The position numbers and the translations under genes are program-made. Below the pieces are notes generated by a model, which did not search any database, was not told the DNA's origin, and worked only from the letters and a program-made list of their open reading frames with translations. Of a stretch of DNA of 30,231 nucleotides, positions 2,747-18,852 are shown piece by piece. Positions within the stretch are counted from its first letter, which is position 1, and each line of letters begins with the position of its first letter. This DNA is from a virus (Duplodnaviria; Heunggongvirae; Uroviricota; Caudoviricetes): IMG/VR virus record IMGVR_UViG_2695420421_000005. The stretch is one strand, 5' to 3'.

Positions 2747-3048
2747 TGCTACCACCAGAGTTCCTACGCTCTATATGGCGGTAGCCCAGACGGGGGTAGG
2801 AATACCGGTAAACGAAGAAACCGGCCAGCTAAAAGCTGCCCCATCTGAGCCACCATAAATTTGGTGTACGCAGATTTTACACACAAAAAAACACGCAGGC
2901 GCGTGTTGTGCGCTTCATTTACTCGGGTTCCTACGCCCGGCTACGGGATTTACCGTAGCGGAGTAACTTTACCGTCAAAACGACGCGCACGTCAATAATT
3001 TGCAAAGGCATTTTACCCCGTGACCAGTCACGGGGACAGGTGTTTTTA
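2747..3048 (+). ncRNA. Candidate structured noncoding RNA or regulatory leader (strand and ends uncertain)
   Basis: ~300 bp without a credible ORF; several GC-rich hairpins (ACACGC-AGGC-GCGTGT 2891-2906; 7-bp stem 2940-2946/2953-2959); GTTCCTACGC repeated at 2760-2769 and 2927-2936; possible -35 TTGAAC 2714-2719 and -10 TTTAAT 2735-2740 (15-bp spacer, suboptimal); ends at a hairpin plus T-run. Confidence 0.25.
3016..3048 (+). terminator. Hairpin CCCCGTGA-CCAG-TCACGGGG followed by a T-run; possible terminator or protein-binding palindrome
   Basis: 8-bp GC-rich stem 3016-3023/3028-3035 with TTTTT at 3042-3046; the palindrome core recurs inverted at 13753-13768. Confidence 0.4.
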
Positions 3049-3809: not shown

Positions 3810-4136
3810 TTAACCCCACTCACCATCAGCAAACAAAGCGTTATACTCTGACAATGGTAGACGGTTGCCCTCGATGTAGAGATTCAGTTCATACTTCGTC
3901 TCCGGGTTTTCCTTGTCTGCTCGTTCCCAACGCTCAGCAGCCTTACGCGCCAATAATTCCACTGCTTTCAGGTAATCCTCCGTACGGAACCAGCCAAAGA
4001 TAAGGCCACGATCTGTTACAGCCCAGGCGACCTTTTTTTCTTCCTCCTGGATAGCCTTAATGCGTCGATCGCATTCATCCCGGCAGAACTGCAGCTGACG
4101 GTAATCAAGTTTGTCCAAAAATGCAGTAGTAGACAT
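3810..4136 (-). CDS. Hypothetical protein (108 aa)
   Basis: ORF in the same orientation as repA with compact spacing; no family recognised. Confidence 0.6.
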   Translation of the reverse strand: MSTTAFLDKLDYRQLQFCRDECDRRIKAIQEEEKKVAWAVTDRGLIFGWFRTEDYLKAVELLARKAAERWERADKENPETKYELNLYIEGNRLPLSEYNALFADGEWG

Positions 4137-7300: not shown

Positions 7301-8320
7301 CCCTTTTCCTTCTGTGGCTGATTTCCGGTCATTATCCAGTGCGCAGGTGATTTTTGCCGCCGGGTACATGTTTACCAGTTGTTCCACAACATGAACCATG
7401 TTGTTAGCGGATACAGCGACAACCACAGCGTCAAAGCGTTTATCTTTTTTCGTGGCAAGCCAGATGGATGCACCAGTAGCAAAACCTTCTGTAACAGCGA
7501 TGTTTTGCGCCCCTTTCAGCTCACCGATAACAAAGCAGGCACCGACGAAATCGCCGCTGGTTACTGCGCTGGTCTGGTATTTCCCACCTTGTTTGTCGAT
7601 TCGCTGCCAACCCACAATACGACCATCGTAACGACCGTCCAGGTGAGCCAGAGGGATAGCCATATATGTGGTTGGCCCCCGGTTCCATTTCGCACTGTCG
7701 TGACTGGTCACGCGACGCACATCACATGAACTAAAAACGTCACGAATACCTTTTTTAATCGCATATGGCCATGAGCCGTCTTCTGCAGGAGCATGTTCCC
7801 ACGCGCTGTGGAATGCCAGCCATCCCAGCAAACGTTCATGGTCCATTTGGTTGTTTTTCAGGTCATTAATTCGTTTTTGTTCTTCACGGCGACGACGTGC
7901 TTCGGCCTGACGTTTTATTCTTGCCCGTTCTTCTTCCGGTTGTGCGACCACGGTCGCATTATTCCGTTGTTGCTCACGGCGATATTCAGAAAACAGGAAG
8001 GAGAAACCGCTCCATGAGCCAGCATCGCTGCCTTTATGGACGAAGTTAATGAACGGGTAATCAATCCCTTTGCTGTGTTCCAGCCGGGAGTAAATTTCTA
8101 CGCGTCCTTTGAGGCTCTTTTCGAGAGCTTCTGGAGATGTTTTATTGTATGAAGAGTAACGCTCAACACCCCCGCGAGGGTTGAGTTGGATGTTGTCGGA
8201 ACAGGCAGACCAGTTGATACCAGCCATCTGTGCCAGCTCGGTTAGTTCATCCCGTGCTGCTTCAATTAGCGAGAACGGATCGCTGCCAAAGCGATCCGCA
8301 TAGAAATCGTTTAATGTCAT
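4325..8320 (-). CDS. repA: Replication protein RepA (primase-helicase), 1331 aa
   Basis: Size and position match N15 RepA (~1320 aa); Walker A motif GMGSGKST in the helicase region; sits between the telN side and the cB immunity region as in N15. Confidence 0.93.
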   Translation of the reverse strand: MTLNDFYADRFGSDPFSLIEAARDELTELAQMAGINWSACSDNIQLNPRGGVERYSSYNKTSPEALEKSLKGRVEIYSRLEHSKGIDYPFINFVHKGSDAGSWSGFSFLFSEYRREQQRNNATVVAQPEEERARIKRQAEARRRREEQKRINDLKNNQMDHERLLGWLAFHSAWEHAPAEDGSWPYAIKKGIRDVFSSCDVRRVTSHDSAKWNRGPTTYMAIPLAHLDGRYDGRIVGWQRIDKQGGKYQTSAVTSGDFVGACFVIGELKGAQNIAVTEGFATGASIWLATKKDKRFDAVVVAVSANNMVHVVEQLVNMYPAAKITCALDNDRKSATEGKGNTGLRTGYEILSKFNDVRCVYPTFEDDPQMECSDFNDLHKLRGLRETARQLFATANRLKTGTDLLSLTLNRLKTIKRDNRRTFAKELLRAVDIGMLTCPVPNSPSDLFNMFCIVLREMGLENIYRATVKDHIARRLNKKCRIAQAPRSFSERITDPNKRPQHITYKRFETSVMTDDVLKYVQSLQGIVIVRAGMGSGKSTGLLRPLMHSSERGISVAHRVSLIGGLWEMMTEGKGVKADILHYQDPGYQEMAPYASKLTICINSIVKNCWQPLMRQHDYFGFDEATQGLRAVLSGRAMENPVAVFNTLIDALARTEQHPIMVDADANDLLVDLAELAMKRREELGLPAWLQIHVIELPVDVRNRETGEPIRVFYTEKDRIMTEVVKAVSDGEKIMLATDSSTFAEDVTATLRMHFPGKKFLCVNQKNKPEPEVEAFTNQPKKMVKKYDGLIYSPSISSGVSIEQKHFDRHFGMFCGEVVPSDAVQMLRRDRTAKEFIIGFDKARAKRETDPQKIERAFAQALLATAGMNGELTDVIFDGDRISMGVANTDFTRMKIKAAAIEATARNDYASNMICIMHSDGYKVSPLGTDYAANDIGKDLRKEARDIVWEQTLDLHLNTETPQESEREELLKKRALTLEEQAKLVRWDIENELKLPVEEGTLKFYFDGARDKVRRYETMLLDEVTARRYDREEAAINFTYAYRQAGQWQYFVVTAMTREQADDVFKTKFPGIIDHKVKATPTVEVGARGFYALKSATLRQYFIDCGINPETMTGEATQERLKFARDNLMTAERRDLLNNVLHIGGFMTPKGKPKVPEALFKNICDSLGLKTGKRRGRDGDKRPTLRFVEPESAAFMLDILVQRQKDGLTLKTRKAEKTAIEMDRDLDLNIYMDDKTRSTNEQVQNAPHSVISEALAVLPVAVPESWAMSALSGEELATMSSWSSTSIAMTFASLYLTEFMDHLSSNELRRLREYITGNSSCSYEEQGAFYG
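7943..7958. repeat. sopC-like centromere-type inverted repeat TGCGACC-AC-GGTCGCA (copy 1, inside repA coding sequence)
   Basis: 7-bp inverted arms with 2-bp spacer, same architecture as the F sopC core TGGGACC-AC-GGTCCCA; five copies in this window. Confidence 0.5.
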
Positions 8321-9253: not shown

Positions 9254-9475
9254 ATGAAACCAGAAGAACTTATTCGCCACTTTGGCAGTGTAGAAAAAGC
9301 AGCGGCAGGGGTAGGTGTAACACCCGGAGCTGTTTACCAATGGTTAACCGCTGGAGAGATTCCTTCATTGCGGCAAAGCGATATTGAAGTTCGTACTGCT
9401 TATAAGCTGAAGAGTGACTTTACAACTCGGCGGGTAAAGCAGTCGATTAAGGAGAGTCGTAAGCGTGGAGCTTGA
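9254..9475 (+). CDS. cro: Cro-like HTH regulator (73 aa from the ATG at 9254)
   Basis: Small basic HTH protein (HFGSVEKAAAGVGVTPGAVYQWL) divergent from the repressor gene; the ORF-track start at 9227 is TTG, the internal ATG is more plausible. Confidence 0.8.
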   Translation: MKPEELIRHFGSVEKAAAGVGVTPGAVYQWLTAGEIPSLRQSDIEVRTAYKLKSDFTTRRVKQSIKESRKRGA

Positions 9476-10175
9476 GTATATACGCAGCTGCGTCTCTACG
9501 GCATTGGCTGATGTTCATTATCGCCAGCGTGGCATTCTGGAGGTCCAGCTTGAGCAGATGCGTCTCGGTAGATCAGGACGGTTTAACAATAAACCAGTCC
9601 GGTCAATCAGTGTGGGGGATGATAACTCATACGAAGTGTCCGTTCCTGCTGAGCCGGTTAGATTCCACCAGGGGAAAACATTTAAACAATCATCAATGTT
9701 GCTCACTGATATTGATTTTCAGAGCGCCAGCTGGCGCAGGGCTATTGGTCAGTTGAATAACGAGGAATCAGCCTGGCTTTATTATTGCTACGGATGCAAG
9801 CCTGATTACAACAATGATGTGATTGTTTGTCAGTGGTTATGGCTTGATTTTCTGGTTGCTCATTCGGGGGGCGGCTTTAAAAAAATGAAGGCCTCCACGA
9901 AAAAAGCCATGCGGAAATTGATTTATTACGCGGCACAGCAGGTTAAATCAGAACTTACGTGTGCTGAGGCAGTTGATGAGAGAGAACAGGACAGGCATCT
10001 GAGTCTTCTACTGAATATATCTATTGATAGCTGGAGACAAGATTATAAAGAACGCTGGCTTTTAATTAAGTCGCGATGTCTGAGCTTAAATCGAACTGCA
10101 TTATTAAATGCGGCGGAGAAGCGCAGTGAAATCATCAAACGCCATCGGGCAGGAAGTGCCATTCTGCCTTTGTAA
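9465..10175 (+). CDS. Hypothetical protein (236 aa), positional analogue of the Q antiterminator in a cB-cro-Q arrangement
   Basis: GTG start overlapping the cro end with AAGGAGAG upstream; product assignment is by position only, no motif confirmed. Confidence 0.65.
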   Translation: MELEYIRSCVSTALADVHYRQRGILEVQLEQMRLGRSGRFNNKPVRSISVGDDNSYEVSVPAEPVRFHQGKTFKQSSMLLTDIDFQSASWRRAIGQLNNEESAWLYYCYGCKPDYNNDVIVCQWLWLDFLVAHSGGGFKKMKASTKKAMRKLIYYAAQQVKSELTCAEAVDEREQDRHLSLLLNISIDSWRQDYKERWLLIKSRCLSLNRTALLNAAEKRSEIIKRHRAGSAILPL

Positions 10176-10182
10176 ACAAGTT

Positions 10183-10428
10183 ATGTTCAGGAAACCGTCG
10201 AAGCCAGAATTAAGGTATTCGGGGGTAAGAAATGAATATGTTATCTGGTGTCCAACTTGTGGTTACAGGACACGACCAGATAGTAATAAGCAGTCTGTAA
10301 TTGCCGATTGGTATTTATCAAATCAGCCAGGTAATAAGCATATAGAAAATCTTTGGATTAAGCGTTACTTGGAAATCAGAGAGGGTGCGACCGTGGTCGC
10401 ACAAGAAAATGAAAATAACGCCATTTAA
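10183..10428 (+). CDS. Small zinc-ribbon-like protein, possibly Lar-family restriction alleviation protein (81 aa)
   Basis: CPTCG plus VIADWYLS resembles the Lar-family CPFCG...AI.AWN pattern, but only one CxxC is present; start at the internal ATG after the upstream stop. Confidence 0.4.
   Translation: MFRKPSKPELRYSGVRNEYVIWCPTCGYRTRPDSNKQSVIADWYLSNQPGNKHIENLWIKRYLEIREGATVVAQENENNAI
10386..10401. repeat. sopC-like inverted repeat TGCGACC-GT-GGTCGCA (copy 2, within the 3' end of the Lar-like ORF)
   Basis: Same 7-2-7 inverted repeat as the other copies. Confidence 0.5.
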
Positions 10429-10612
10429 GCAGGGGCCGATGACGCATGATGAAGCAGAGCGTCTTTCAGATAATTATCGGCGGCGTGGTAAGAAAGTTCT
10501 GGTTGTTCGTTCTGATTTTTTAGGTGATGGATATTGCGTTTATGTTCATTTACCTGAATCAGAAAGAACGCCAAAACCATCCAGAACATATCAACAGAAA
10601 ATTTGGGTATAG
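10409..10612 (+). CDS. Hypothetical protein (67 aa)
   Basis: ORF with internal ATG; no clear RBS; no family recognised. Confidence 0.4.
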   Translation: MKITPFKQGPMTHDEAERLSDNYRRRGKKVLVVRSDFLGDGYCVYVHLPESERTPKPSRTYQQKIWV

Positions 10613-10635
10613 ATAAACGTTGAGGAGAATTATTC

Positions 10636-11235
10636 GTGACTAATCAGATTATTTACGACAGGAAACGGTCTGATGTAATGATTGACCTTGAAACAATGGG
10701 TACTAACACATGTGCTCCAATTGTTTCTATCGGGGCAGTGTTTTTTTCTCCAGAAAATGAGGAATTAGGTCCTACTTTTTATGTGCCAGTGAATCTCAGA
10801 AGCTCGATGTTGAATGGTGGTGTCGCCGATGGTGATACCATTTTATGGTGGTTGAAACAGAGCAAGGAAGCCAGAGCCGCAATTTGTACTAATGATGCCC
10901 TTGATATTAAGGATGCACTTTTTGAATTATCACACTTTATTACTTGCCATGCATGTAATTTAAAAAAATTGAAAGTATGGGGAAATGGAGCAACGTTCGA
11001 TAATGTAATTTTACGCGGTGCTTATGAGCGCGTTGGCTTAGCCTGTCCGTGGGAATATTTTAATGATCAGGATGTTCGAACAATCGTTAATCTTGGTCAG
11101 TTTATTGGTTTTAATCCTAAAAAAGATATGCCATTTGATGGCGAACGACACAATGCCCTAGCTGATGCTATTCATCAGGCTAAATATGTATCCGCAATTT
11201 TCTCCCGTCTTGTAAAAGGTCAAGGAGAATCGTAA
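10636..11235 (+). CDS. DnaQ-like 3'-5' exonuclease (DEDDh family), 199 aa
   Basis: Exo I MIDLETMG, Exo II WGNGATFDNVIL, Exo III HNALADA motifs; GAGGAG 8 nt upstream of the GTG start. Confidence 0.8.
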   Translation: MTNQIIYDRKRSDVMIDLETMGTNTCAPIVSIGAVFFSPENEELGPTFYVPVNLRSSMLNGGVADGDTILWWLKQSKEARAAICTNDALDIKDALFELSHFITCHACNLKKLKVWGNGATFDNVILRGAYERVGLACPWEYFNDQDVRTIVNLGQFIGFNPKKDMPFDGERHNALADAIHQAKYVSAIFSRLVKGQGES

Positions 11236-11654
11236 TGGCAAAGGCTTTTACACCAGAACAGAGGGAAGAACTGAATAAACAAATTGTGGAACTCGTGCGC
11301 CTGAATGGACGAGGAACGGTTAGGCAACTTGCGGATGAAACTGGTATTAGCCGATGTGCTGTTAGTCGTTTATCAAGAGAGCTTGCTGCCAGTGGTGATT
11401 TGTATATCTCTGGCTCCGGGATATTTCTGTCTGCACAAGCACGCAAGGACTGGCAAAACGCCCGTAAAAAACTATCAAGAGTAAAGCCGAAGACATCGGT
11501 AGTGGTTGATCCAGACCTTATCTGGTCATTACCTGACGGAGAAATACGTCGTTACGACAGGCGCTTGAACATGATTTGTCACGATTGCCGGAAAAGTGAA
11601 GTTATGCAGCGTGTGCTGGCTTTTTATCAGGGAAATTTTCAGGAGGTGGCGTAG
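11235..11654 (+). CDS. Putative HTH DNA-binding protein (139 aa)
   Basis: Probable winged-helix segment VRQLADETGISRCAVSRLSRELAASGDL; start overlaps the upstream stop. Confidence 0.7.
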   Translation: MAKAFTPEQREELNKQIVELVRLNGRGTVRQLADETGISRCAVSRLSRELAASGDLYISGSGIFLSAQARKDWQNARKKLSRVKPKTSVVVDPDLIWSLPDGEIRRYDRRLNMICHDCRKSEVMQRVLAFYQGNFQEVA

Positions 11655-11944
11655 TGAATATCGACACCACGATAACGATCGATACGGCCCTAAATACCGG
11701 TCTGGCACTTCTCGGTTGGCTTTACATCATGTCCCGTGCATGGCGATGGCTTGGTTCCATTTTTCTAAAACAGTGGAAAAAACGGCGCAAACAGGAGAGA
11801 CGCCAGAAAGCGTTAGAGGCGTTCTATGACGCATTTGAACTTAGCCGCATTGAGCCTGGAACAACAGCCAGGATAGCGACAAAAGGTGACCTGATGATAG
11901 TGATGTTCCGACAGGAGAGAGCAGAGAAAGGAGAATCAGCATGA
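11654..11944 (+). CDS. Small membrane protein (96 aa)
   Basis: Hydrophobic helix ALNTGLALLGWLYIM followed by a basic KKRRKQERRQK stretch; GTG start overlapping the upstream stop. Confidence 0.55.
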   Translation: MNIDTTITIDTALNTGLALLGWLYIMSRAWRWLGSIFLKQWKKRRKQERRQKALEAFYDAFELSRIEPGTTARIATKGDLMIVMFRQERAEKGESA

Positions 11945-12675
11945 AATTTTCCAAATTTTCTGAGTTGGTGAATCGCATTTTGTCCAACAACCATAGCCAT
12001 CATCGCGATATGGATGTAACGATCGTTGTTCATTCGCCTGGTCGCATCGGTTCAACACCATCAGTTGAGGTTCAGTCAATTCAGGCGGGTTTTGATTGGG
12101 ATTCCGGGAAAGTGCTTATTTTCCCAGCACAGCCACTGACCACGCTAACACCAGAACAGATTACTGATATTACTGATAGTGTGCGCAAAGGTCAGTCTTG
12201 GCACGCATATCAGGAATATAAAAAGCATAAAGAGCAGTTGGAAAAATTGTCGATTGAACTGGATGCTGCAAAACAGCGCGTAGCAGAACTGGAAGCCAAA
12301 CCTGTAAGCCAAACTTACAAGTTAACTTTTGAGCAATGGCTGGAACAGCAGCATGACAAAATTGATGTTGATTGTGGATGTGTAAGTACTGAAATGTTTA
12401 TGCACTGGATAAGGGTCGCGTATGAGGCTGGCAACTATCCGGTAACTCCGGATGGTTGGATAAGCTGTAGTGAGCGAATGCCTGAAAAGGGCCAGAACGT
12501 GCTTATTTCGGTGAATTTCGATAGCTCTCTGGTTGAACCGCTAATATGCTCCGCACGCTATACCGGAAGCACCTTTCGGCGCGGAGATGCAACGATTAAG
12601 CCGGGTAATGCTATTGAGCAAGCAACTCACTGGATGCCGCTACCAGAACCTCCGCAGGAGTCGAAGAGTGAATAA
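11941..12675 (+). CDS. DUF551-like phage protein (244 aa)
   Basis: C-terminal region (PDGWISCSERMPEKGQNVLI...WMPLPEPP) resembles DUF551; ATGA overlap with the upstream gene. Confidence 0.75.
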   Translation: MKFSKFSELVNRILSNNHSHHRDMDVTIVVHSPGRIGSTPSVEVQSIQAGFDWDSGKVLIFPAQPLTTLTPEQITDITDSVRKGQSWHAYQEYKKHKEQLEKLSIELDAAKQRVAELEAKPVSQTYKLTFEQWLEQQHDKIDVDCGCVSTEMFMHWIRVAYEAGNYPVTPDGWISCSERMPEKGQNVLISVNFDSSLVEPLICSARYTGSTFRRGDATIKPGNAIEQATHWMPLPEPPQESKSE

Positions 12676-12889
12676 AGCAGAGTTATTTCAGAAAATATCG
12701 GCTCTCGCGACTGAATGCCACGCTATAGCATCTGAGCTTGATGTTGGCGATGAACGAACCGAGATGTTCGAAATATACAGTGTGCTGCGCAATCTCTGTC
12801 GGCGTGGCTACGCCACTCAAGTAGGGCGAATGACTAACCCACTACTCTCATCCTGTGATGAGGATGACTCGGATGAGGATGACGAATGA
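12668..12889 (+). CDS. Hypothetical acidic-tailed protein (73 aa from GTG)
   Basis: GTG start with GGAG ~9 nt upstream; C-terminus DEDDSDEDDE; overlaps flanking genes in operon-like fashion. Confidence 0.45.
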   Translation: MNKAELFQKISALATECHAIASELDVGDERTEMFEIYSVLRNLCRRGYATQVGRMTNPLLSSCDEDDSDEDDE

Positions 12890-13416
12890 TGCATAAAGCA
12901 GTAGCCGGTGAGTTTCAGAAGGAAGTCGATAATACTACCGTTCTATTGGACGATATTTTAAGCATTCTCGCGCTGCTTGAGGCTGGCGATTGGTCAGAAC
13001 ATTGCACTAAAACAGAGCTAGGCGGTCGGCTTGAAAGAGAGATTACACGACTTATTGGTGATGCGCAGGAAGCCACTGTCACTGGCTATGAGTTAATCGC
13101 TGAAGCCTGGCGTTTGATGGATGGACAAGACCCTAAAACCAGCGATTGGCATAGCAAGGCGTCGAAGTATTTAAATTCCAATATTGTAGAAAAAGTTGAT
13201 GATGACCGTATTGAGGCCGTTAAGGCTGTGTTGCGTAGGTTGGCTGGCAACTCTCCGGTAACTCCGGATGGTCATGTTCAGTTTTCTGTTTCACTTCCTG
13301 CAGCGTTTGGTGGAGATAAATATTTTATTGATGGTGTATTTCAACCTTTGAGATATGAGCGTGACTGTGAAAAAGCGGTTGTGGCCGCTGGCGGTGTAGT
13401 TAATTGGGTTAAGTAA
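12886..13416 (+). CDS. Hypothetical protein (176 aa) sharing the AGN(Y/S)PVTPDG segment with the upstream DUF551 gene
   Basis: ATGA-coupled ORF; ~32-nt near-identical segment at 13245-13276 versus 12428-12459. Confidence 0.7.
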   Translation: MMHKAVAGEFQKEVDNTTVLLDDILSILALLEAGDWSEHCTKTELGGRLEREITRLIGDAQEATVTGYELIAEAWRLMDGQDPKTSDWHSKASKYLNSNIVEKVDDDRIEAVKAVLRRLAGNSPVTPDGHVQFSVSLPAAFGGDKYFIDGVFQPLRYERDCEKAVVAAGGVVNWVK

Positions 13417-13431
13417 TTTTCAGGAGGATTT

Positions 13432-13758
13432 ATGGCGCTGACACCGGCAGAACGGCAAAGGAGACGCAGGGAACGGTTGAAGAAGGAAGGCACATCAAGA
13501 CGGGACTGGATTTTGGAGCCTGACGAGTTACGTATGTTGGGGGAAATTTGTGTATTGCGTAGACCAGGGCGAGTTCCATATTCGGAGAACGAAGTCATTG
13601 GTTTGCTGATCAGGAAAAACTATAAGGAGCTGCAGAAGCAGCTATCTACTACTTGCCCGCGATGTGGTCAAAAAATGCCTGTTTCAGAATGCATTTTTGA
13701 TGGCGAAGGGTCATGCCACCTTACAACCACGAGGCTGAAACTTGCGCTCAAAGCGTGA
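13432..13758 (+). CDS. Hypothetical protein (108 aa), arginine-rich N-terminus and Cys-containing C-terminus
   Basis: CAGGAGG RBS 6 nt upstream of ATG; MALTPAERQRRRRERLKKEG basic region. Confidence 0.7.
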   Translation: MALTPAERQRRRRERLKKEGTSRRDWILEPDELRMLGEICVLRRPGRVPYSENEVIGLLIRKNYKELQKQLSTTCPRCGQKMPVSECIFDGEGSCHLTTTRLKLALKA

Positions 13759-13768
13759 CTGGTCACGG
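13753..13768. repeat. Palindrome GCGTGACTGGTCACGG, inverted copy of the 3018-3033 palindrome
   Basis: 15 of 16 positions are the reverse complement of the site at 3018-3033; overlaps the stop codon of the upstream gene and precedes the RBS of the next. Confidence 0.5.
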
Positions 13769-13776
13769 AGGGATAA

Positions 13777-14019
13777 ATGGATAAAAAGGCATTGCTTTTT
13801 GAAATGATACGAAAACGGAGCGAAAAGAGCTTTTCTGATGGTGGTGATGGGTTTGTTTTCGCTTCTATGCTTGCTTTTGATGTTGGGTTAAATAGCAGAA
13901 TTGTTAAAAGGATGCTTGATTCTGCTGTCCGTGATGGGCTTTTGGAAGTGGTTGGGCGAGGAGTAGGAAGGGAACATAAGTATCGGACTACAAAGATATT
14001 TAACCAGTTAATCTATTGA
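13777..14019 (+). CDS. Hypothetical protein (80 aa)
   Basis: GGAGGG RBS upstream of ATG; no family recognised. Confidence 0.65.
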   Translation: MDKKALLFEMIRKRSEKSFSDGGDGFVFASMLAFDVGLNSRIVKRMLDSAVRDGLLEVVGRGVGREHKYRTTKIFNQLIY

Positions 14020-14045
14020 AAGTTGGCTATAAAATTTGAGTTTTA

Positions 14046-14065
14046 CCCTGTAATTTTATACAGTA
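14046..14065. promoter_or_regulatory. LexA (SOS) box CCCTGTAATTTTATACAGTA
   Basis: CTGT-N8-ACAG with an AT-rich spacer and ACAGTA end, matching the E. coli LexA consensus; overlaps a possible -10 (TACAGT) 17 bp after TTGAGT; preceded by GGCTATAAAATTT also found at the cB/cro operator. Confidence 0.6.
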
Positions 14066-14087
14066 TCAAATAACCTTTTTTAATTAA

Positions 14088-14306
14088 ATGGTATTAGATT
14101 CAATGACTGAAGCACCTGTATCAACTCTTGAAGAACTCGGATCAAACCTAAAAGACATCGACGCCGTTTTGGATCTGGTTAGCGTTGCTCTGGCTTCTCC
14201 AGAAGCCAGCTTGCATCTTGGCGAGATTTCACGACTTGTTAGTATGTCGCGGGAGATTGCTCAGAATTGCCAACAAGTTATTGCTGTTGAGTGTTTACAT
14301 CATTGA
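14088..14306 (+). CDS. Small acidic protein (72 aa; alternative start at 14103), candidate SOS-regulated antirepressor
   Basis: First ORF downstream of the LexA box; product assignment is inference by analogy with the N15 LexA-controlled antirepressor. Confidence 0.5.
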   Translation: MVLDSMTEAPVSTLEELGSNLKDIDAVLDLVSVALASPEASLHLGEISRLVSMSREIAQNCQQVIAVECLHH

Positions 14307-14349
14307 TATACACCCCGCCCTTCTGGACGGGGTAGCGAAAAGGGTCTAA

Positions 14350-14637
14350 TCAATAGACGGCATTAATATTAATCGTTGCACCGCATGCTTGGGCATATTT
14401 TGATAAAGTTTTCATGCTTGCCCCTAAAGGATTGCTTTCCAGGCGGCTGATAGCTGACGGGCGCAATCCCATTCGTTCAGCCAGAGCTGACTTCGTTAAA
14501 CCTGCTCTTTCCCTCATTTCGTATAACATTTCGACCATCTCCAGCTCTTTATCGGCCTCTTCATATCCTTTGATGGCTTCTGGAGTGTTGAGAAGTTTTT
14601 CTTTTACTTCGTTAAACGGGATGCCTTTCGCTTTCAT
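14350..14637 (-). CDS. HTH XRE-family antitoxin (HigA-like), 95 aa
   Basis: HTH segment LTKSALAERMGLRPSAISRLE; start overlaps the toxin stop by 1 nt; toxin-first gene order typical of higBA. Confidence 0.85.
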   Translation of the reverse strand: MKAKGIPFNEVKEKLLNTPEAIKGYEEADKELEMVEMLYEMRERAGLTKSALAERMGLRPSAISRLESNPLGASMKTLSKYAQACGATININAVY

Positions 14638-14948
14638 CAGTTCATCTCCTTCAGGCGAGTTCTGGCGATTTCGATAGCCTTCACCGGTGTTTTCTGTGTC
14701 TTTTTTACAAATGCATGCAATAGATAAATTTCGTTACCAGTCGCGTAGGCGTACAGCGTTCTTGCGATGTTTTTATCCCCTACTCGTAGTTCAAAAAGCC
14801 CTCCACCTATTACACGGCTATGGGGCATCTTCAGTTTGTTGCCTTCTTTCTCCAGTCGCTCAATTAATCTGGTCATGCGACCTCGCAAATCATCTGGTAG
14901 TTCAAGCAGTTCATCCAGTGCTGCAGGGTGGGTTATCACGTTAAACAT
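14637..14948 (-). CDS. RelE/ParE-superfamily toxin (HigB/Gp49-like), 103 aa
   Basis: Conserved IGGGLFELRVGDKNIARTLYAY core typical of HigB/Gp49-like toxins; GGAGG 9 nt upstream of ATG. Confidence 0.85.
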   Translation of the reverse strand: MFNVITHPAALDELLELPDDLRGRMTRLIERLEKEGNKLKMPHSRVIGGGLFELRVGDKNIARTLYAYATGNEIYLLHAFVKKTQKTPVKAIEIARTRLKEMN

Positions 14949-15006
14949 ATTATAGCCTCCATATCCATAAAATACACCAAAACAAGAAAACAGCGCAAAT
15001 TAAAAA

Positions 15007-15024
15007 TTTCACTAAAAAGTGAAA
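15007..15024. promoter_or_regulatory. Palindrome TTTCACT-AAAA-AGTGAAA upstream of the toxin-antitoxin operon (candidate autoregulatory operator)
   Basis: Perfect 7-bp inverted arms ~60 bp upstream of the toxin start on the transcribed side. Confidence 0.45.
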
Positions 15025-15113
15025 AATAACACTGGATGTGTTCGTTTGGCAGAGTTACAGTTCGTGTCATTGAGGGGCAATAACCAACTAACTATATGAA
15101 TTTGGAGGATATT

Positions 15114-15335
15114 ATGAATTATCAAGGTAACGAAAAAATGCGCGACGACGTTGCGGAGATAGCTAACGAACTGTATGAGTTGTGGCAGAAGGTTGAACGT
15201 TTCGAAAAGGAATATGGTTTCAACAGTACCAACCTAGCAGACCGACTGGCTGGTCGCTTAGTTGGGACTATGGGGCCAAAACTGGCTGAGTTGAACCGCT
15301 TTATGGCTGATGTTGATTTCCAGTTTCAAGATTGA
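15114..15335 (+). CDS. Hypothetical protein (73 aa from ATG 15114)
   Basis: GGAGG 6 nt upstream of the internal ATG; no family recognised. Confidence 0.6.
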   Translation: MNYQGNEKMRDDVAEIANELYELWQKVERFEKEYGFNSTNLADRLAGRLVGTMGPKLAELNRFMADVDFQFQD

Positions 15336-15348
15336 TTAGAGAGGCGTT

Positions 15349-15576
15349 ATGAATATTAATGAAATTCGTGGAAATATGACTGAAGCGGCCCTGAGTGTGG
15401 AATGTGTTATGCGTGGATACCCACGCATTTCCCTGAAAGAGTTAAGCGAAGCCTGTTTTTTGAGTCAAGCTGCCGTTGAATTTATCATCGAACAGATGAT
15501 CTGTTTTGGGGTTGCAAAGCGTAGCGGGTCTGGTCGATATTCTTTGACCGATGAATATAAGCAGGCAACTTTCTAA
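15349..15576 (+). CDS. Hypothetical protein (75 aa), possible winged-helix
   Basis: GAGAGG RBS upstream; no family confirmed. Confidence 0.65.
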   Translation: MNINEIRGNMTEAALSVECVMRGYPRISLKELSEACFLSQAAVEFIIEQMICFGVAKRSGSGRYSLTDEYKQATF

Positions 15577-15582
15577 AAACTG

Positions 15583-15598
15583 TGCGACCACGGTCGCA
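15583..15598. repeat. sopC-like inverted repeat TGCGACC-AC-GGTCGCA (copy 3, intergenic)
   Basis: Same motif, 7 nt after the stop of the upstream gene. Confidence 0.5.
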
Positions 15599-15685
15599 CA
15601 GCACAAAAACGAAAAAGCTTGGCAAAATGACGGTTTTTAGTTATTGTTTTGTTAAGTTGGGTTTTTTGTACCCAACAGCCAACAA

Positions 15686-15709
15686 GCCGCCTTTATGGCG
15701 GTTTTTTTG
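15686..15709 (+). terminator. Intrinsic terminator (short GC stem plus T7)
   Basis: GCCGCC-TTTAT-GGCGG followed by TTTTTTT. Confidence 0.5.
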
Positions 15710-15724
15710 TGCCTGAAAAGTGGG

Positions 15725-15752
15725 CGCAGGACAAGTTGCAGCTTGTCCTGCG
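15725..15752. repeat. Strong 11-bp stem hairpin CGCAGGACAAG-TTGCAG-CTTGTCCTGCG
   Basis: Perfect inverted repeat without a following T-run, upstream of the methyltransferase gene. Confidence 0.5.
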
Positions 15753-15795
15753 GTCAACCCATGCCAGAGCTATAGGCTGAACCTAAAGCCCACCC

Positions 15796-15809
15796 GCGAT
15801 GCGCATCGC
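15796..15809. promoter_or_regulatory. Perfect 14-bp palindrome GCGATGCGCATCGC ~35 bp upstream of the methyltransferase start
   Basis: Self-complementary sequence read directly; function unknown. Confidence 0.4.
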
Positions 15810-15843
15810 CGGGTTAGCTTACCCAGGCAAAAAAATAATAGCT

Positions 15844-16920
15844 ATGTTCAAAACCACTAATATTCATGGCGCACAACTCGTTTGCGCAGATTCTCTGCAA
15901 TTTATCAAAACCATCCCTGATAACTCGGTCAATTTGATTGCAACAGACCCACCATACTTCGGCGTAAAGGCTAACGCATGGGATAACCAGTGGGATAGCG
16001 ATGCTGACTTTTTGGGGTGGATTGACGAATTTTTGGCAGAATTTTGGCGGATATTGGCCCCTAATGGCAGCCTGTATATGTTTACCGGCTCTCGCCTTGC
16101 GTCAAAAATTGAATTATTAACTCGCGACCGTTTCAATGTTCTGAACCATATTATTTGGGCTAAACCCAGTGGTATGTGGCGCGGTTGTCATAAAGAAAGT
16201 TTAAGGGCTTATTTTCCTGCTACTGAAAGAATATTATTTGCAGAGCATTACGGCGCGTCAGGTTATGCTAAAGGTCAGTCAGGTTATGCTTCAAAATGTG
16301 CAGATTTAAGAAAAAATATTTTTTCTCCACTAATTGATGCTTTTTCGCTGGCTCGCCGTCAGTTAGATATATCAGCCGCAGACATTAATTCAGCGACAGG
16401 AAAGCAGATGTGTTCACACTGGTTTTCTTATTCGCAGTGGCGGCTTCCATCATTAATTGATTTTAATAAACTATGCGAATTATTTCGCAGGAAGGCAGAT
16501 TCACTCGGTGTCCCGTGTCCATATCCTTTTAATGTTGATTATTCAGAACATGAAAAGCGTTATAGCGATCTGAAATTGCATTATGAGGAAGTAAAGAAGC
16601 AGTATGATGATTTGAAGGCTCAGTATGAAAATTTACGCCGTCCATTTCATGTTACTGCTGATGTACCTTATACCGATGTATGGGAGTTTCCTCCTGTGCA
16701 ATATTATCCTGGCAAGCACCCATGTGAAAAACCTGCAGCGATGATGGAACATATTATAAAGAGTAGTTCACGCCCCGGAGATATCGTTGCCGATTTCTTT
16801 ATGGGATCAGGCTCAACTATTAAAGCTGCGCTGAAGTTAGGACGTCAGGCAATAGGTATTGAGATTGAGGGCGAACGTTATCTTCAGACAGTTGATGAAG
16901 TGAAAAAGTTATTTGAGTAA
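15844..16920 (+). CDS. DNA methyltransferase, beta-class N6-adenine/N4-cytosine type (358 aa)
   Basis: N-terminal DPPY motif (LIATDPPYFGV) and C-terminal AdoMet-binding FFMGSGST in beta-class order; the ORF-track start at 15799 runs through the palindrome, the ATG at 15844 is more likely. Confidence 0.85.
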   Translation: MFKTTNIHGAQLVCADSLQFIKTIPDNSVNLIATDPPYFGVKANAWDNQWDSDADFLGWIDEFLAEFWRILAPNGSLYMFTGSRLASKIELLTRDRFNVLNHIIWAKPSGMWRGCHKESLRAYFPATERILFAEHYGASGYAKGQSGYASKCADLRKNIFSPLIDAFSLARRQLDISAADINSATGKQMCSHWFSYSQWRLPSLIDFNKLCELFRRKADSLGVPCPYPFNVDYSEHEKRYSDLKLHYEEVKKQYDDLKAQYENLRRPFHVTADVPYTDVWEFPPVQYYPGKHPCEKPAAMMEHIIKSSSRPGDIVADFFMGSGSTIKAALKLGRQAIGIEIEGERYLQTVDEVKKLFE

Positions 16921-16934
16921 CTGGAGAATATATT

Positions 16935-16963
16935 CCCCTGCCGTTTTTGGTAGGGGTTATTTT
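16935..16963 (+). terminator. Intrinsic terminator after the methyltransferase gene
   Basis: Stem CCCCTGCC/GGTAGGGG with loop GTTTTT followed by TTATTTT. Confidence 0.6.
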
Positions 16964-18572: not shown

Positions 18573-18592
18573 AAATCTCTTTGTTTCTCGTT

Positions 18593-18608
18593 TGCGACCG
18601 TGGTCGCA
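18593..18608. repeat. sopC-like inverted repeat TGCGACC-GT-GGTCGCA (copy 4)
   Basis: Same motif, immediately left of direct repeat A. Confidence 0.5.
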
Positions 18609-18619
18609 CATTAAATACC

Positions 18620-18795: not shown

Positions 18796-18812
18796 GCATG
18801 TATTCAGGAGCG

Positions 18813-18828
18813 TGCGACCGTGGTCGCA
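18813..18828. repeat. sopC-like inverted repeat TGCGACC-GT-GGTCGCA (copy 5)
   Basis: Same motif, immediately right of direct repeat A and 25 bp upstream of the gene X start. Confidence 0.5.
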
Positions 18829-18852
18829 CGGTATCTTTGTCAGGAGGTTTTG

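Follow-up and report, generated by a model that had tools for sequence, protein, structure and literature searches.

In the window, a 30,231-nucleotide (nt) stretch from an N15-like tailed phage (Caudoviricetes; IMG/VR record IMGVR_UViG_2695420421_000005), a small winged-helix open reading frame (ORF) is followed, after a short noncoding gap, by an orphan DNA methyltransferase (methylase) gene. The gap had been proposed, in an original prediction made from the sequence alone, to hold a dense cluster of cis-elements, namely a sopC-like site, a terminator, an 11-bp-stem hairpin without a T-run and a perfect 14-bp palindrome about 35 bp before the methylase start, and the methylase had been suggested as a possible orphan under specific control. 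All four elements are present (15580–15601, 15684–15711, 15725–15752 and 15796–15809), and the palindrome ends 34 nt before the ATG at 15844; a sigma-70-like promoter (15619–15647) and a 7-bp hairpin (15656–15676) had been missed. Conservation in relatives, whose lack would have told against the prediction, was found for the elements. We read the segment as an N15-like late-gene control region followed by a folded messenger RNA leader, with a probability of about 70%. The repeat, promoter and terminator are those of the known N15/phiKO2 late region, and what is new is the leader, which is widespread and has no described relative. The features of the locus, and the Q gene that would act on it, are as follows.

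9465–10175, plus strand: Q-type late antiterminator gene (PF06323 Phage_antiter_Q, E=4.3e-84; phrog_304)
15349–15576, plus strand: gp51-like small winged-helix ORF (phrog_331, E=3e-32)
15580–15601, no strand: SopB-type centromere inverted repeat, equivalent to IR3 of N15 (repeat match and comparison with N15)
15619–15647, plus strand: predicted late promoter, with -35 TTGGCA (15619–15624), a 17-nt spacer and -10 TATTGT (15642–15647), by consensus match
15653–15661, plus strand: -10-like TAAGTT followed by GGG, at about +1 to +8
15656–15676, plus strand: 7-bp hairpin GTTGGGT/ACCCAAC of the promoter-proximal transcript
15684–15711, plus strand: intrinsic terminator, tR′-like, with its stem at 15684–15704 and a T-run to 15711, about 57 nt past the predicted start
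15716–15843, plus strand: structured leader RNA of about 130 nt with helices P1–P5, found with a covariance model in the gap between terminator and methylase
15844–16920, plus strand: orphan beta-class N6-adenine DNA methyltransferase, first gene of the late operon (PF01555, E=1.1e-46)
16935–16956, plus strand: terminator-like hairpin between the methylase and holin genes, where N15 also has an annotated terminator

The promoter hexamers align with the annotated -35 and -10 elements of N15 and, in phiKO2, with the ‘putative late promoter’, and they begin about 20 bp downstream of the centromere repeat. At lambda PR′, a -10-like pause signal lies among the first transcribed bases. The same arrangement, a sigma-70 promoter with a -10-like element in its initial transcribed region, is seen here as TTGGCA-17-TATTGT followed by TAAGTTGGG, and by analogy TAAGTT-GGG is probably a sigma-dependent pause combined with a Q-loading element. 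In an alignment of seven relatives of the control region (A1), the A-run before the -35 hexamer, the TT of that hexamer, TA(A/T)GTTGG (7/7) and the terminator sequence GGCGGTTTTTTT are invariant. The -35 hexamer is TTGGCA in six of the seven sequences, and the P840 promoter is diverged and shorter; the 7-bp hairpin is retained in the phiKO2, Kpn74 and P840 groups and absent from N15 and MStein.

The terminator, which is annotated in the N15 and phiKO2 records, does not simply end an upstream operon: because the late promoter sits between the repeat and the terminator, it is best taken, from its sequence context, as a tR′-type stop that would be overridden by Q. The Q gene is the counterpart of N15 gp40, a ‘late transcription activator’, and a comparison of its sequence with solved Q structures gave no match. 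On the same strand 3′ of the terminator lie the late genes for the methylase, holin, lysozyme, Rz, terminase, head and tail. We infer promoter activity, pausing and the action of Q, like the translational role considered below, from sequence and from the precedent of N15 and lambda. Transcription would start near 15654, and RNA polymerase would pause at TAAGTT-GGG, letting the phage Q protein load. Without Q, it would stop at 15684–15711 and release an RNA of about 57 nt, as lambda does its 6S RNA; with Q, it would go on to transcribe the methylase and then the genes for lysis, heads and tails, so that the methylase would be expressed only when Q is acting. For the short RNA predicted without Q, about 15654–15711, folding gives two hairpins (-25.6 kcal/mol, z=-4.5); against Rfam, the promoter-to-terminator RNA stayed below threshold, scoring 27 bits with AgrB (cut-off 40) and 14 bits with isrK (cut-off 50), which reflects its hairpin-plus-terminator shape. 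Very likely, the repeat, promoter and terminator together form a Q-dependent late-operon switch. With the late promoter placed in this way, the main control at this locus, judged from sequence and analogy, is that of the whole late operon rather than of the methylase alone. Specific control of the methylase, as originally proposed, thus gives way to an operon-wide switch, and a gene-specific layer exerted through the leader is plausible because the start codon lies behind the leader without a Shine-Dalgarno sequence.

The centromere repeat itself reads CTGTGCGACC-AC-GGTCGCACAG, with two 10-nt arms that are 100% complementary, and it contains the family core GTGCGACC-NN-GGTCGCAC exactly, at 15582–15599. 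This core has five matches in the window against 0.00 expected by chance, the other four, none assigned to a strand, being:

7942–7959: sister repeat with 1 mismatch, within the replication gene (repA)
10385–10402: sister repeat just 3′ of Q, at the position of IR2 in N15
18592–18609: sister repeat with 1 mismatch
18812–18829: sister repeat

N15 has four such repeats (33479, 35930, 41124 and 45561), and the window sites within repA, past Q and ahead of the late promoter are placed as in N15. The N15 site at 41124, which separates gene 51 from the late promoter, has the sequence of the IR3 oligonucleotide used for an N15 centromere construct (PMC7205306, Table 4). The site predicted as sopC-like matches this repeat, and by its sequence it is the IR3 equivalent among the five SopB (ParB-type) centromere sites scattered over the window. 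In the phiKO2 record, the corresponding copy is annotated as a ‘putative plasmid partitioning site’. In P840 and in the relative L096 an F-type site (TGGGACC...) stands beside the late promoter, as TGGGACCACGGTCCCA and TGGGACCGTGGTCCCA, respectively, and because a site is retained next to the promoter even when its sequence turns F-type, a functional link between the two is suggested. Ravin, Rech and Lane are said to have reported in 2008 that the Sop system of N15 facilitates late gene expression. The sopA and sopB genes lie outside the 30-kb window, and ParA and ParB are encoded on the other arm of the 98.8%-identical phage PhiR46_1. As further observations on this segment, Klebsiella phage 48ST307 (L006, 1706–1775) carries a tandem pair of centromere repeats 5′ of its late promoter, and in many Klebsiella plasmids the repeat-promoter-terminator segment is matched at two or three places per record.

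Beyond the terminator, the stretch up to the ATG is conserved among relatives, and the positions of the hairpin and the palindrome stay paired while their letters change. The two had been taken for independent elements; they are instead two helices, P2 and P4, within a single conserved leader RNA fold, in which P1, P2 and P3 form a three-way junction that is followed by the hairpins P4 and P5. All helices are given on the plus strand.

15721–15792: P1, UGGGC (15721–15725) paired with GCCCA (15788–15792), closing the three-way junction
15726–15751: P2, 10 bp (15726–15735 with 15742–15751), loop UUGCAG
15754–15780: P3, an irregular helix of UCAACCCAUG with UAUAGGCUGA, containing A.C and C.A mismatches
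15793–15812: P4, a stem and GCGC loop made by the palindrome at 15796–15809
15814–15838: P5, by eye GCUU (15817–15820) with AGGC (15825–15828), in the model 15814–15819 with 15833–15838 (4/6 pairs)

Diverged copies of the leader were found directly 5′ of a homologous methylase in four lambdoid phages, phiP27, mEp460, Hafnia yong2 and an Stx2a (Shiga toxin 2a) phage. The fold was captured in a covariance model, R1, built from 24 lambdoid copies only (139 positions; 40 pairs in helices P1–P5). R1 matches the window over its full length at 15716–15849 (38.2 bits, E=1.6e-8), with 33 of the 40 model pairs formed. It also finds N15 (E=1e-8), the phiKO2 and Kpn74 group (55–61 bits) and PY54 and P840 (63–70 bits); the window, N15, phiKO2 and PY54 copies are all full-length, with E-values from 1e-8 to 1e-18. 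Folded by itself, the window leader has a minimum free energy of -54 kcal/mol (z=-3.8). Base-pair covariation was scored in three sets of sequences, as the number of model pairs changed on both sides and as a score compared with the shuffled mean.

A5, IMG/VR and reference phages: 84 distinct sequences, 26/40 pairs, score 0.302 against 0.122
A8, one genome per species from all Enterobacterales: 22 distinct sequences, 21/40 pairs, score 0.225 against 0.093
A9, loci found through the methylase of Vibrio phage Valp1, Vibrio-type included: 40 distinct sequences, 35/40 pairs, score 0.417 against 0.145

None of 500 shuffles reached the observed score in any set, and shifting the 3′ partner by 1–3 columns lowered the score to 0.03–0.09 in all three (0.05–0.09 in A5). 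Covariation is seen in P2, where 10–12 of 12 pairs changed on both sides across the sets, and in P3 (5–9 of 10 pairs) and the P4 stem (3–7 of 7). P1 shows no variation in A5 and A8, and a U-A/U.G change and one C-G to G-C swap in A9; an apparent P1 covariation (G-C versus A-U) in the first seven sequences was lost in the larger set, many lambdoid copies having A.C at the flanking position. We consider it likely that the leader is a real structured RNA. Rfam 15, searched both at gathering thresholds and permissively (E up to 10), contained no match to the leader in the window copy (15712–15850) or the P27 copy. No description of the leader or of its motif sequence was found in the literature searched, which largely leaves out subscription journals, so that an earlier description is possible. 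The anti-sRNAs AgvB and AsxR of enterohaemorrhagic E. coli map elsewhere.

The same compensatory changes bear on whether the hairpin and the palindrome have any function. The hairpin (CGCAGGACAAG/CTTGTCCTGCG at 15725–15752, an 11-bp perfect stem followed by GTCAACCC without a T-run) is of a kind expected 0.06 times per 30 kb. The palindrome GCGATGCGCATCGC is of a more common kind, since about 2.1 perfect 14-bp palindromes are expected per 30 kb and the window has five, and terminator-like sites in the surrounding 1.2 kb number one against 1.2 expected in shuffles; for terminator and palindrome, therefore, it is conservation alone that gives them significance. That a palindrome of this size should turn up about twice per 30 kb, and that late operons commonly have several terminators, would agree with the two structures being back-up terminators or functionless chance inverted repeats. 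However, neither has a U-run, and compensatory changes keep both across phages whose methylases are just 50–60% identical, a covariation that contradicts such an explanation and makes it hardly credible.

P4 raises a different question. Its apex is self-complementary in every class, with differing sequences (GCGC, UGCA, UCGA, GGCC and CGCG, forming palindromes of 4–16 bp at the DNA level), and the P2 loops are non-palindromic. This symmetry could reflect a dyad-symmetric protein site on DNA, loop-loop pairing between RNAs, or mutational bias. Because the palindrome centre is always self-complementary, some room is left for an operator role of P4, and the hairpin and palindrome might be DNA operators where a dimeric protein, the gp51 winged-helix protein or the methylase, binds P4 and perhaps P2 and controls methylase transcription, which is the form that the originally proposed specific control would take. 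An RNA hairpin loop needs no symmetry like that of the P4 centre, G.U and A.C counts have no strand bias, and the phrog_331 winged helix-turn-helix (wHTH) gene is a conserved upstream neighbour. The AlphaFold 2 model of its product in the window (predicted local distance difference test, pLDDT, 88.6) has a MarR/IclR-like wHTH fold, and a fold search with it returned only generic MarR/IclR winged helices. Against DNA operators, the loops of P2, P3 and P5 are not palindromic, and the element has bulges, swaps between G.U and Watson-Crick pairs and the long-range helix P1. Moreover, U.G occurs at outer P4 pairs in 19 sequences, the conserved wHTH helix CQLILTQLVMAGL is constant across P4 apex types, and the spacing within the shared TG...CA varies (0, 2 or 4 nt), which misfits a single operator geometry. 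We therefore regard the operator explanation as unlikely and retain the folded leader as the better account of P2 and P4.

P3 is unusual in its mismatches. At window positions 15757/15777 and 15760/15774 (A5 columns 53–70 and 54–69), C.A or A.C stands in 73 and 61 of the 84 sequences; these positions are conserved as C.A/A.C across classes and are Watson-Crick pairs in Hafnia-type copies. Protonated wobble pairs could account for the mismatches, as could an internal loop that binds a protein. On the minus strand, the tandem C.A/A.C of P3 and the many other C.A mismatches would become G.U pairs, which would suit a fold that belongs to a separate small RNA, either a minus-strand antisense RNA that keeps leaky late genes silent in lysogens or a trans-acting RNA cut out of the late transcript; small RNAs are abundant in the late regions of prophages (PMC4104026). 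Yet inspection by eye revealed no convincing conserved minus-strand promoter downstream of the leader, where the methylase coding start differs between classes, no terminator follows P5, and the conserved G.U pair of P5 (59/84 sequences) would be a mismatch on the minus strand. A separate small RNA is thus quite improbable. Two further readings were set aside. A pseudoknot could join the P3 loop (GGUCA/GGAUCA, similar also to the 3′ end of 16S rRNA) to a UGAUC that precedes the AUG, but both sides are invariant in lambdoid copies and the match is missing in the Hafnia and N15 classes; a boxA-like reading of GCUCAUG fails since the N15 class does not conserve it.

The leader is tied closely to one gene. 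The methylase follows directly in 183 of 185 instances of the pattern, with methylases 50–100% identical to that of the window. The leader is carried immediately 5′ of this orphan gene's orthologues by N15-like phages, by lambdoid phages, Stx phages among them, and by Vibrio phages, and it would be the gene's ancient companion. Upstream, the phrog_331 wHTH ORF is the neighbour in both N15-like phages (gp51) and lambdoid phages (L23-like ORFs). The lambdoid order is Q, PR′/tR′, wHTH ORF, leader and methylase, then lysis genes or tRNAs plus stx; the wHTH ORF and the leader are separated by a terminator-like hairpin in P27 and Stx phages and by the centromere site, late promoter and terminator in N15-like phages. 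Vibrio phage Valp1 has a 41-residue zinc-ribbon ORF interposed between its leader (47.6 bits) and the methylase; this ORF (L328, 1619–1744) has weak matches to Mu Com (PF10122, below the cut-off) and to phrog_6417, ‘translational regulator’. Among 80 loci encoding relatives of the Valp1 methylase, 51 have the leader. Most of the others come from one Vibrio group, in which the promoters have LexA boxes, the conserved leader is a different one and a canonical GGAG precedes the ATG. In eight IMG/VR Vibrio-type loci (L341, L343, L345, L346, L349, L353, L361 and L367) a LexA-box-like CTGT-N8-ACAG lies in the promoter region about 200 nt 5′ of the methylase, and their other conserved leader, GCCTTGAGTACCTGAGACC...GGAGAGGAAGC, is partly found in Valp1 too. 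At a further locus, L110 (IMG/VR 2671180727_000005, about 2145–2320), the leader is joined after AGCCTATC to an internal part of the methylase, which looks like a deletion that took P5 and the 5′ part of the gene.

In complete E. coli genomes, the lambdoid form is present in 2690 of 5426, at 3973 places and up to 8 per genome. The N15-type region of the window is present in 16 of the 5426, in plasmids every time, and in 210 records of the plasmid collection, mostly from Klebsiella. Among the E. coli matches listed, no PGAP non-coding RNA annotation covers the leader.

Its position at the head of the late genes, always behind a terminator-like hairpin, could also mark the leader as a general element of the late transcript, either a 5′ structure that RNase processing leaves behind and that stabilises the transcript, or a put-like anti-termination or anti-Rho RNA. 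That the next ORF in Valp1 is not the methylase would fit such a role, as would the finding that P840 still lyses and lysogenises with a transposon in its methylase gene (PMC10612081), which shows the gene to be dispensable in the laboratory. However, the lambdoid leader is found about 350 nt or more past PR′/tR′, beyond another ORF, yet always at the methylase; phages with Q need no RNA antiterminator; the leader is unlike put or any Rfam family; and the missing Shine-Dalgarno sequence points to the adjoining start codon. We consider a general late-transcript function distinctly unlikely.

The start of the methylase gene is set at the ATG at 15844 by the alignment of all relatives and by the PGAP start in Enterobacter plasmids, evidence that rules out the start at 15799, inside the palindrome, given in the ORF list and in the PhiR46_1 record. 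Public methylase starts are wrong in both directions, that of PhiR46_1 (14970, window 15799) being too early and that of N15 gene 52 too late. A coding role for the segment itself, as annotated for a 53-residue ORF of PhiR46_1 (14790–14951, window 15619–15780), which spans promoter, terminator and hairpin, and for P840 ORF61, was rejected given 1-nt insertions and deletions and compensatory stem changes between relatives. The methylase has an N6_N4_Mtase domain whose nearest solved structures are M.RsrI and CcrM. It is flanked by the small winged-helix ORF upstream and by holin, lysozyme and Rz genes downstream, with no adjacent restriction gene, so that its description as an orphan was correct; the same restriction-free arrangement is found in N15, phiKO2, P27, mEp460 and Valp1.

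No Shine-Dalgarno sequence precedes this start. GGAG, GAGG and AGGA are absent at -16 to -4 of the next ATG in 119 of 123 distinct copies of the leader, and the Vibrio methylase homologues that lack the leader have a canonical GGAG before the ATG. The read-through transcript would open with the structured leader of about 130 nt, in which P2 is the hairpin and P4 the palindrome. Because the start has no Shine-Dalgarno sequence, homologues without the motif have one, and P5 ends 2–15 nt before the AUG, the leader can tentatively be assigned a role in controlling the methylase post-transcriptionally, most likely at translation initiation, a proposal to which we give somewhat less than an even chance. 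A bolder version, in which the leader is an uncatalogued widespread cis-regulatory RNA that responds to a protein or ligand and thereby switches the Shine-Dalgarno-independent translation of the methylase, with the P4 loop serving for RNA-RNA dimerisation or for a symmetric partner, is doubtful.

Several observations weigh against the reading of a late control region followed by a folded leader. The promoter matches the consensus at just 9 of 12 positions, and such matches number 3 against 1.7 expected by chance. The alignments from which changed pairs were counted had been fitted to the model structure and their sequences are related, which inflates the covariation scores by an unknown degree, and the counts of G.U and A.C (160 versus 144) leave the folding strand undecided. 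P1 is invariant in two of the sets and has a competing partner, ACCCAU at 15757–15762, just 3′ of P2, whose pairing excludes P3; because this alternative partner is also compatible, a conformational switch is possible. The always-palindromic apex of P4 is not accounted for by a plain RNA hairpin. In the window copy, P5 is weak and poorly defined, although it covaries well in other classes, and the AUG lies outside the predicted helices, so that simple occlusion is not evident. Finally, Valp1-type phages have a small Com-like ORF, and not the methylase, next after the leader.

The remainder of the window agrees with an N15-like origin. The phages nearest to the region are Escherichia phages YDC107_1 and PhiR46_1 (98.8% identity), N15 is 76.5% identical to it overall at the nucleotide level, and further matches come from the phiKO2, PY54 and P840 groups. 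PhiR46_1 and N15 share the gene order telomere site, protelomerase, replication gene, cB, cro, Q, small ORFs and methylase, followed by holin, lysozyme, Rz, terminase, head, tail, ParB and ParA. Because the window opens with the telomere resolution (telRL) palindrome and has this N15-like gene order, it is the right arm plus the beginning of the left arm of an N15-like linear plasmid-prophage.

1–42, at the window start: perfect 42-bp palindrome ACATAATTCCCCATTATACGC|GCGTATAATGGGGAATTATGT, the telRL site

The window starts 21 nt past the hairpin turn, which reflects either an uncut site or an assembly that reads through the telomere. The offset to PhiR46_1 is 11 at the repeat at 10385 and 829 at the repeat at 15582, so that the window has about 818 bp more than PhiR46_1 in the early-right region (about 10400 to 15580). 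Elsewhere, a C4 antisense RNA (2774–2860, minus strand, 73.6 bits) and isrK (2886–2959, minus strand, 62.8 bits) were found next to each other at Rfam gathering level. The pair adjoins small minus-strand ORFs, one of them a putative antirepressor in the PhiR46_1 record, and is probably an RNA-controlled anti-immunity locus of the N15 and P1 kind. ARAGORN found no tRNA and no tmRNA (transfer-messenger RNA) in the window.

The late switch is ordinary, being annotated in N15 and phiKO2, yet it changes how the terminator and the methylase start codon should be read. The leader fronts the first late gene of lambdoid prophages and, in Shiga-toxin phages, stands between Q and stx. Should it control translation of a methylase that has no ribosome-binding site, it would be a new case of post-transcriptional timing of DNA modification in phages, beside com-mom of phage Mu, and an easy target for genetics in E. 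coli. For annotators, it is a reason to drop spurious ORFs and wrong methylase starts across the region.

Among known systems, the N15 late region is the nearest, with gp51, an inverted repeat, -35 and -10 elements, a terminator, about 130 nt, the methylase (gene 52) and holin in the same succession. The repeat core is identical to that of N15 but for its two central bases, and Q, lysis and head genes occupy the same places. Unlike N15, the phage of the window is closest to PhiR46_1 and YDC107_1 and has five repeats instead of four; in the N15 record nothing is annotated between the terminator and gene 52. The late module of lambda, with PR′, qut and tR′, antitermination by Q and the 6S RNA, offers the mechanistic parallel, sharing a constitutive promoter, a -10-like element with GGG, a near intrinsic terminator, a Q gene and downstream lysis and morphogenesis genes. 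It differs in that the present Q belongs to PF06323, the terminated RNA would be only about 57 nt and a ParB-type site lies directly upstream of the promoter. The F plasmid sopC, or ParB-parS, likewise relies on SopB binding to a short inverted repeat of the ...GACCNNGGTC... type, and PY54-like relatives even carry F-type TGGGACC; unlike sopC, the sites here are single dispersed copies and not a tandem array, have the N15-specific arms GTGCGACC and include one next to a promoter. For the leader, Mu com-mom is by analogy the closest functional counterpart, with a small regulatory-protein gene, a structured RNA and a DNA-modification gene with an unusual start, and a Com-like zinc-ribbon ORF lies between leader and methylase only in Valp1-type relatives. 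The leader has no similarity in sequence or structure to the Mu RNA, its start codon is not visibly sequestered in the window, and the place of the upstream Com zinc-finger gene is taken by a wHTH ORF (phrog_331) that the promoter splits from the leader.

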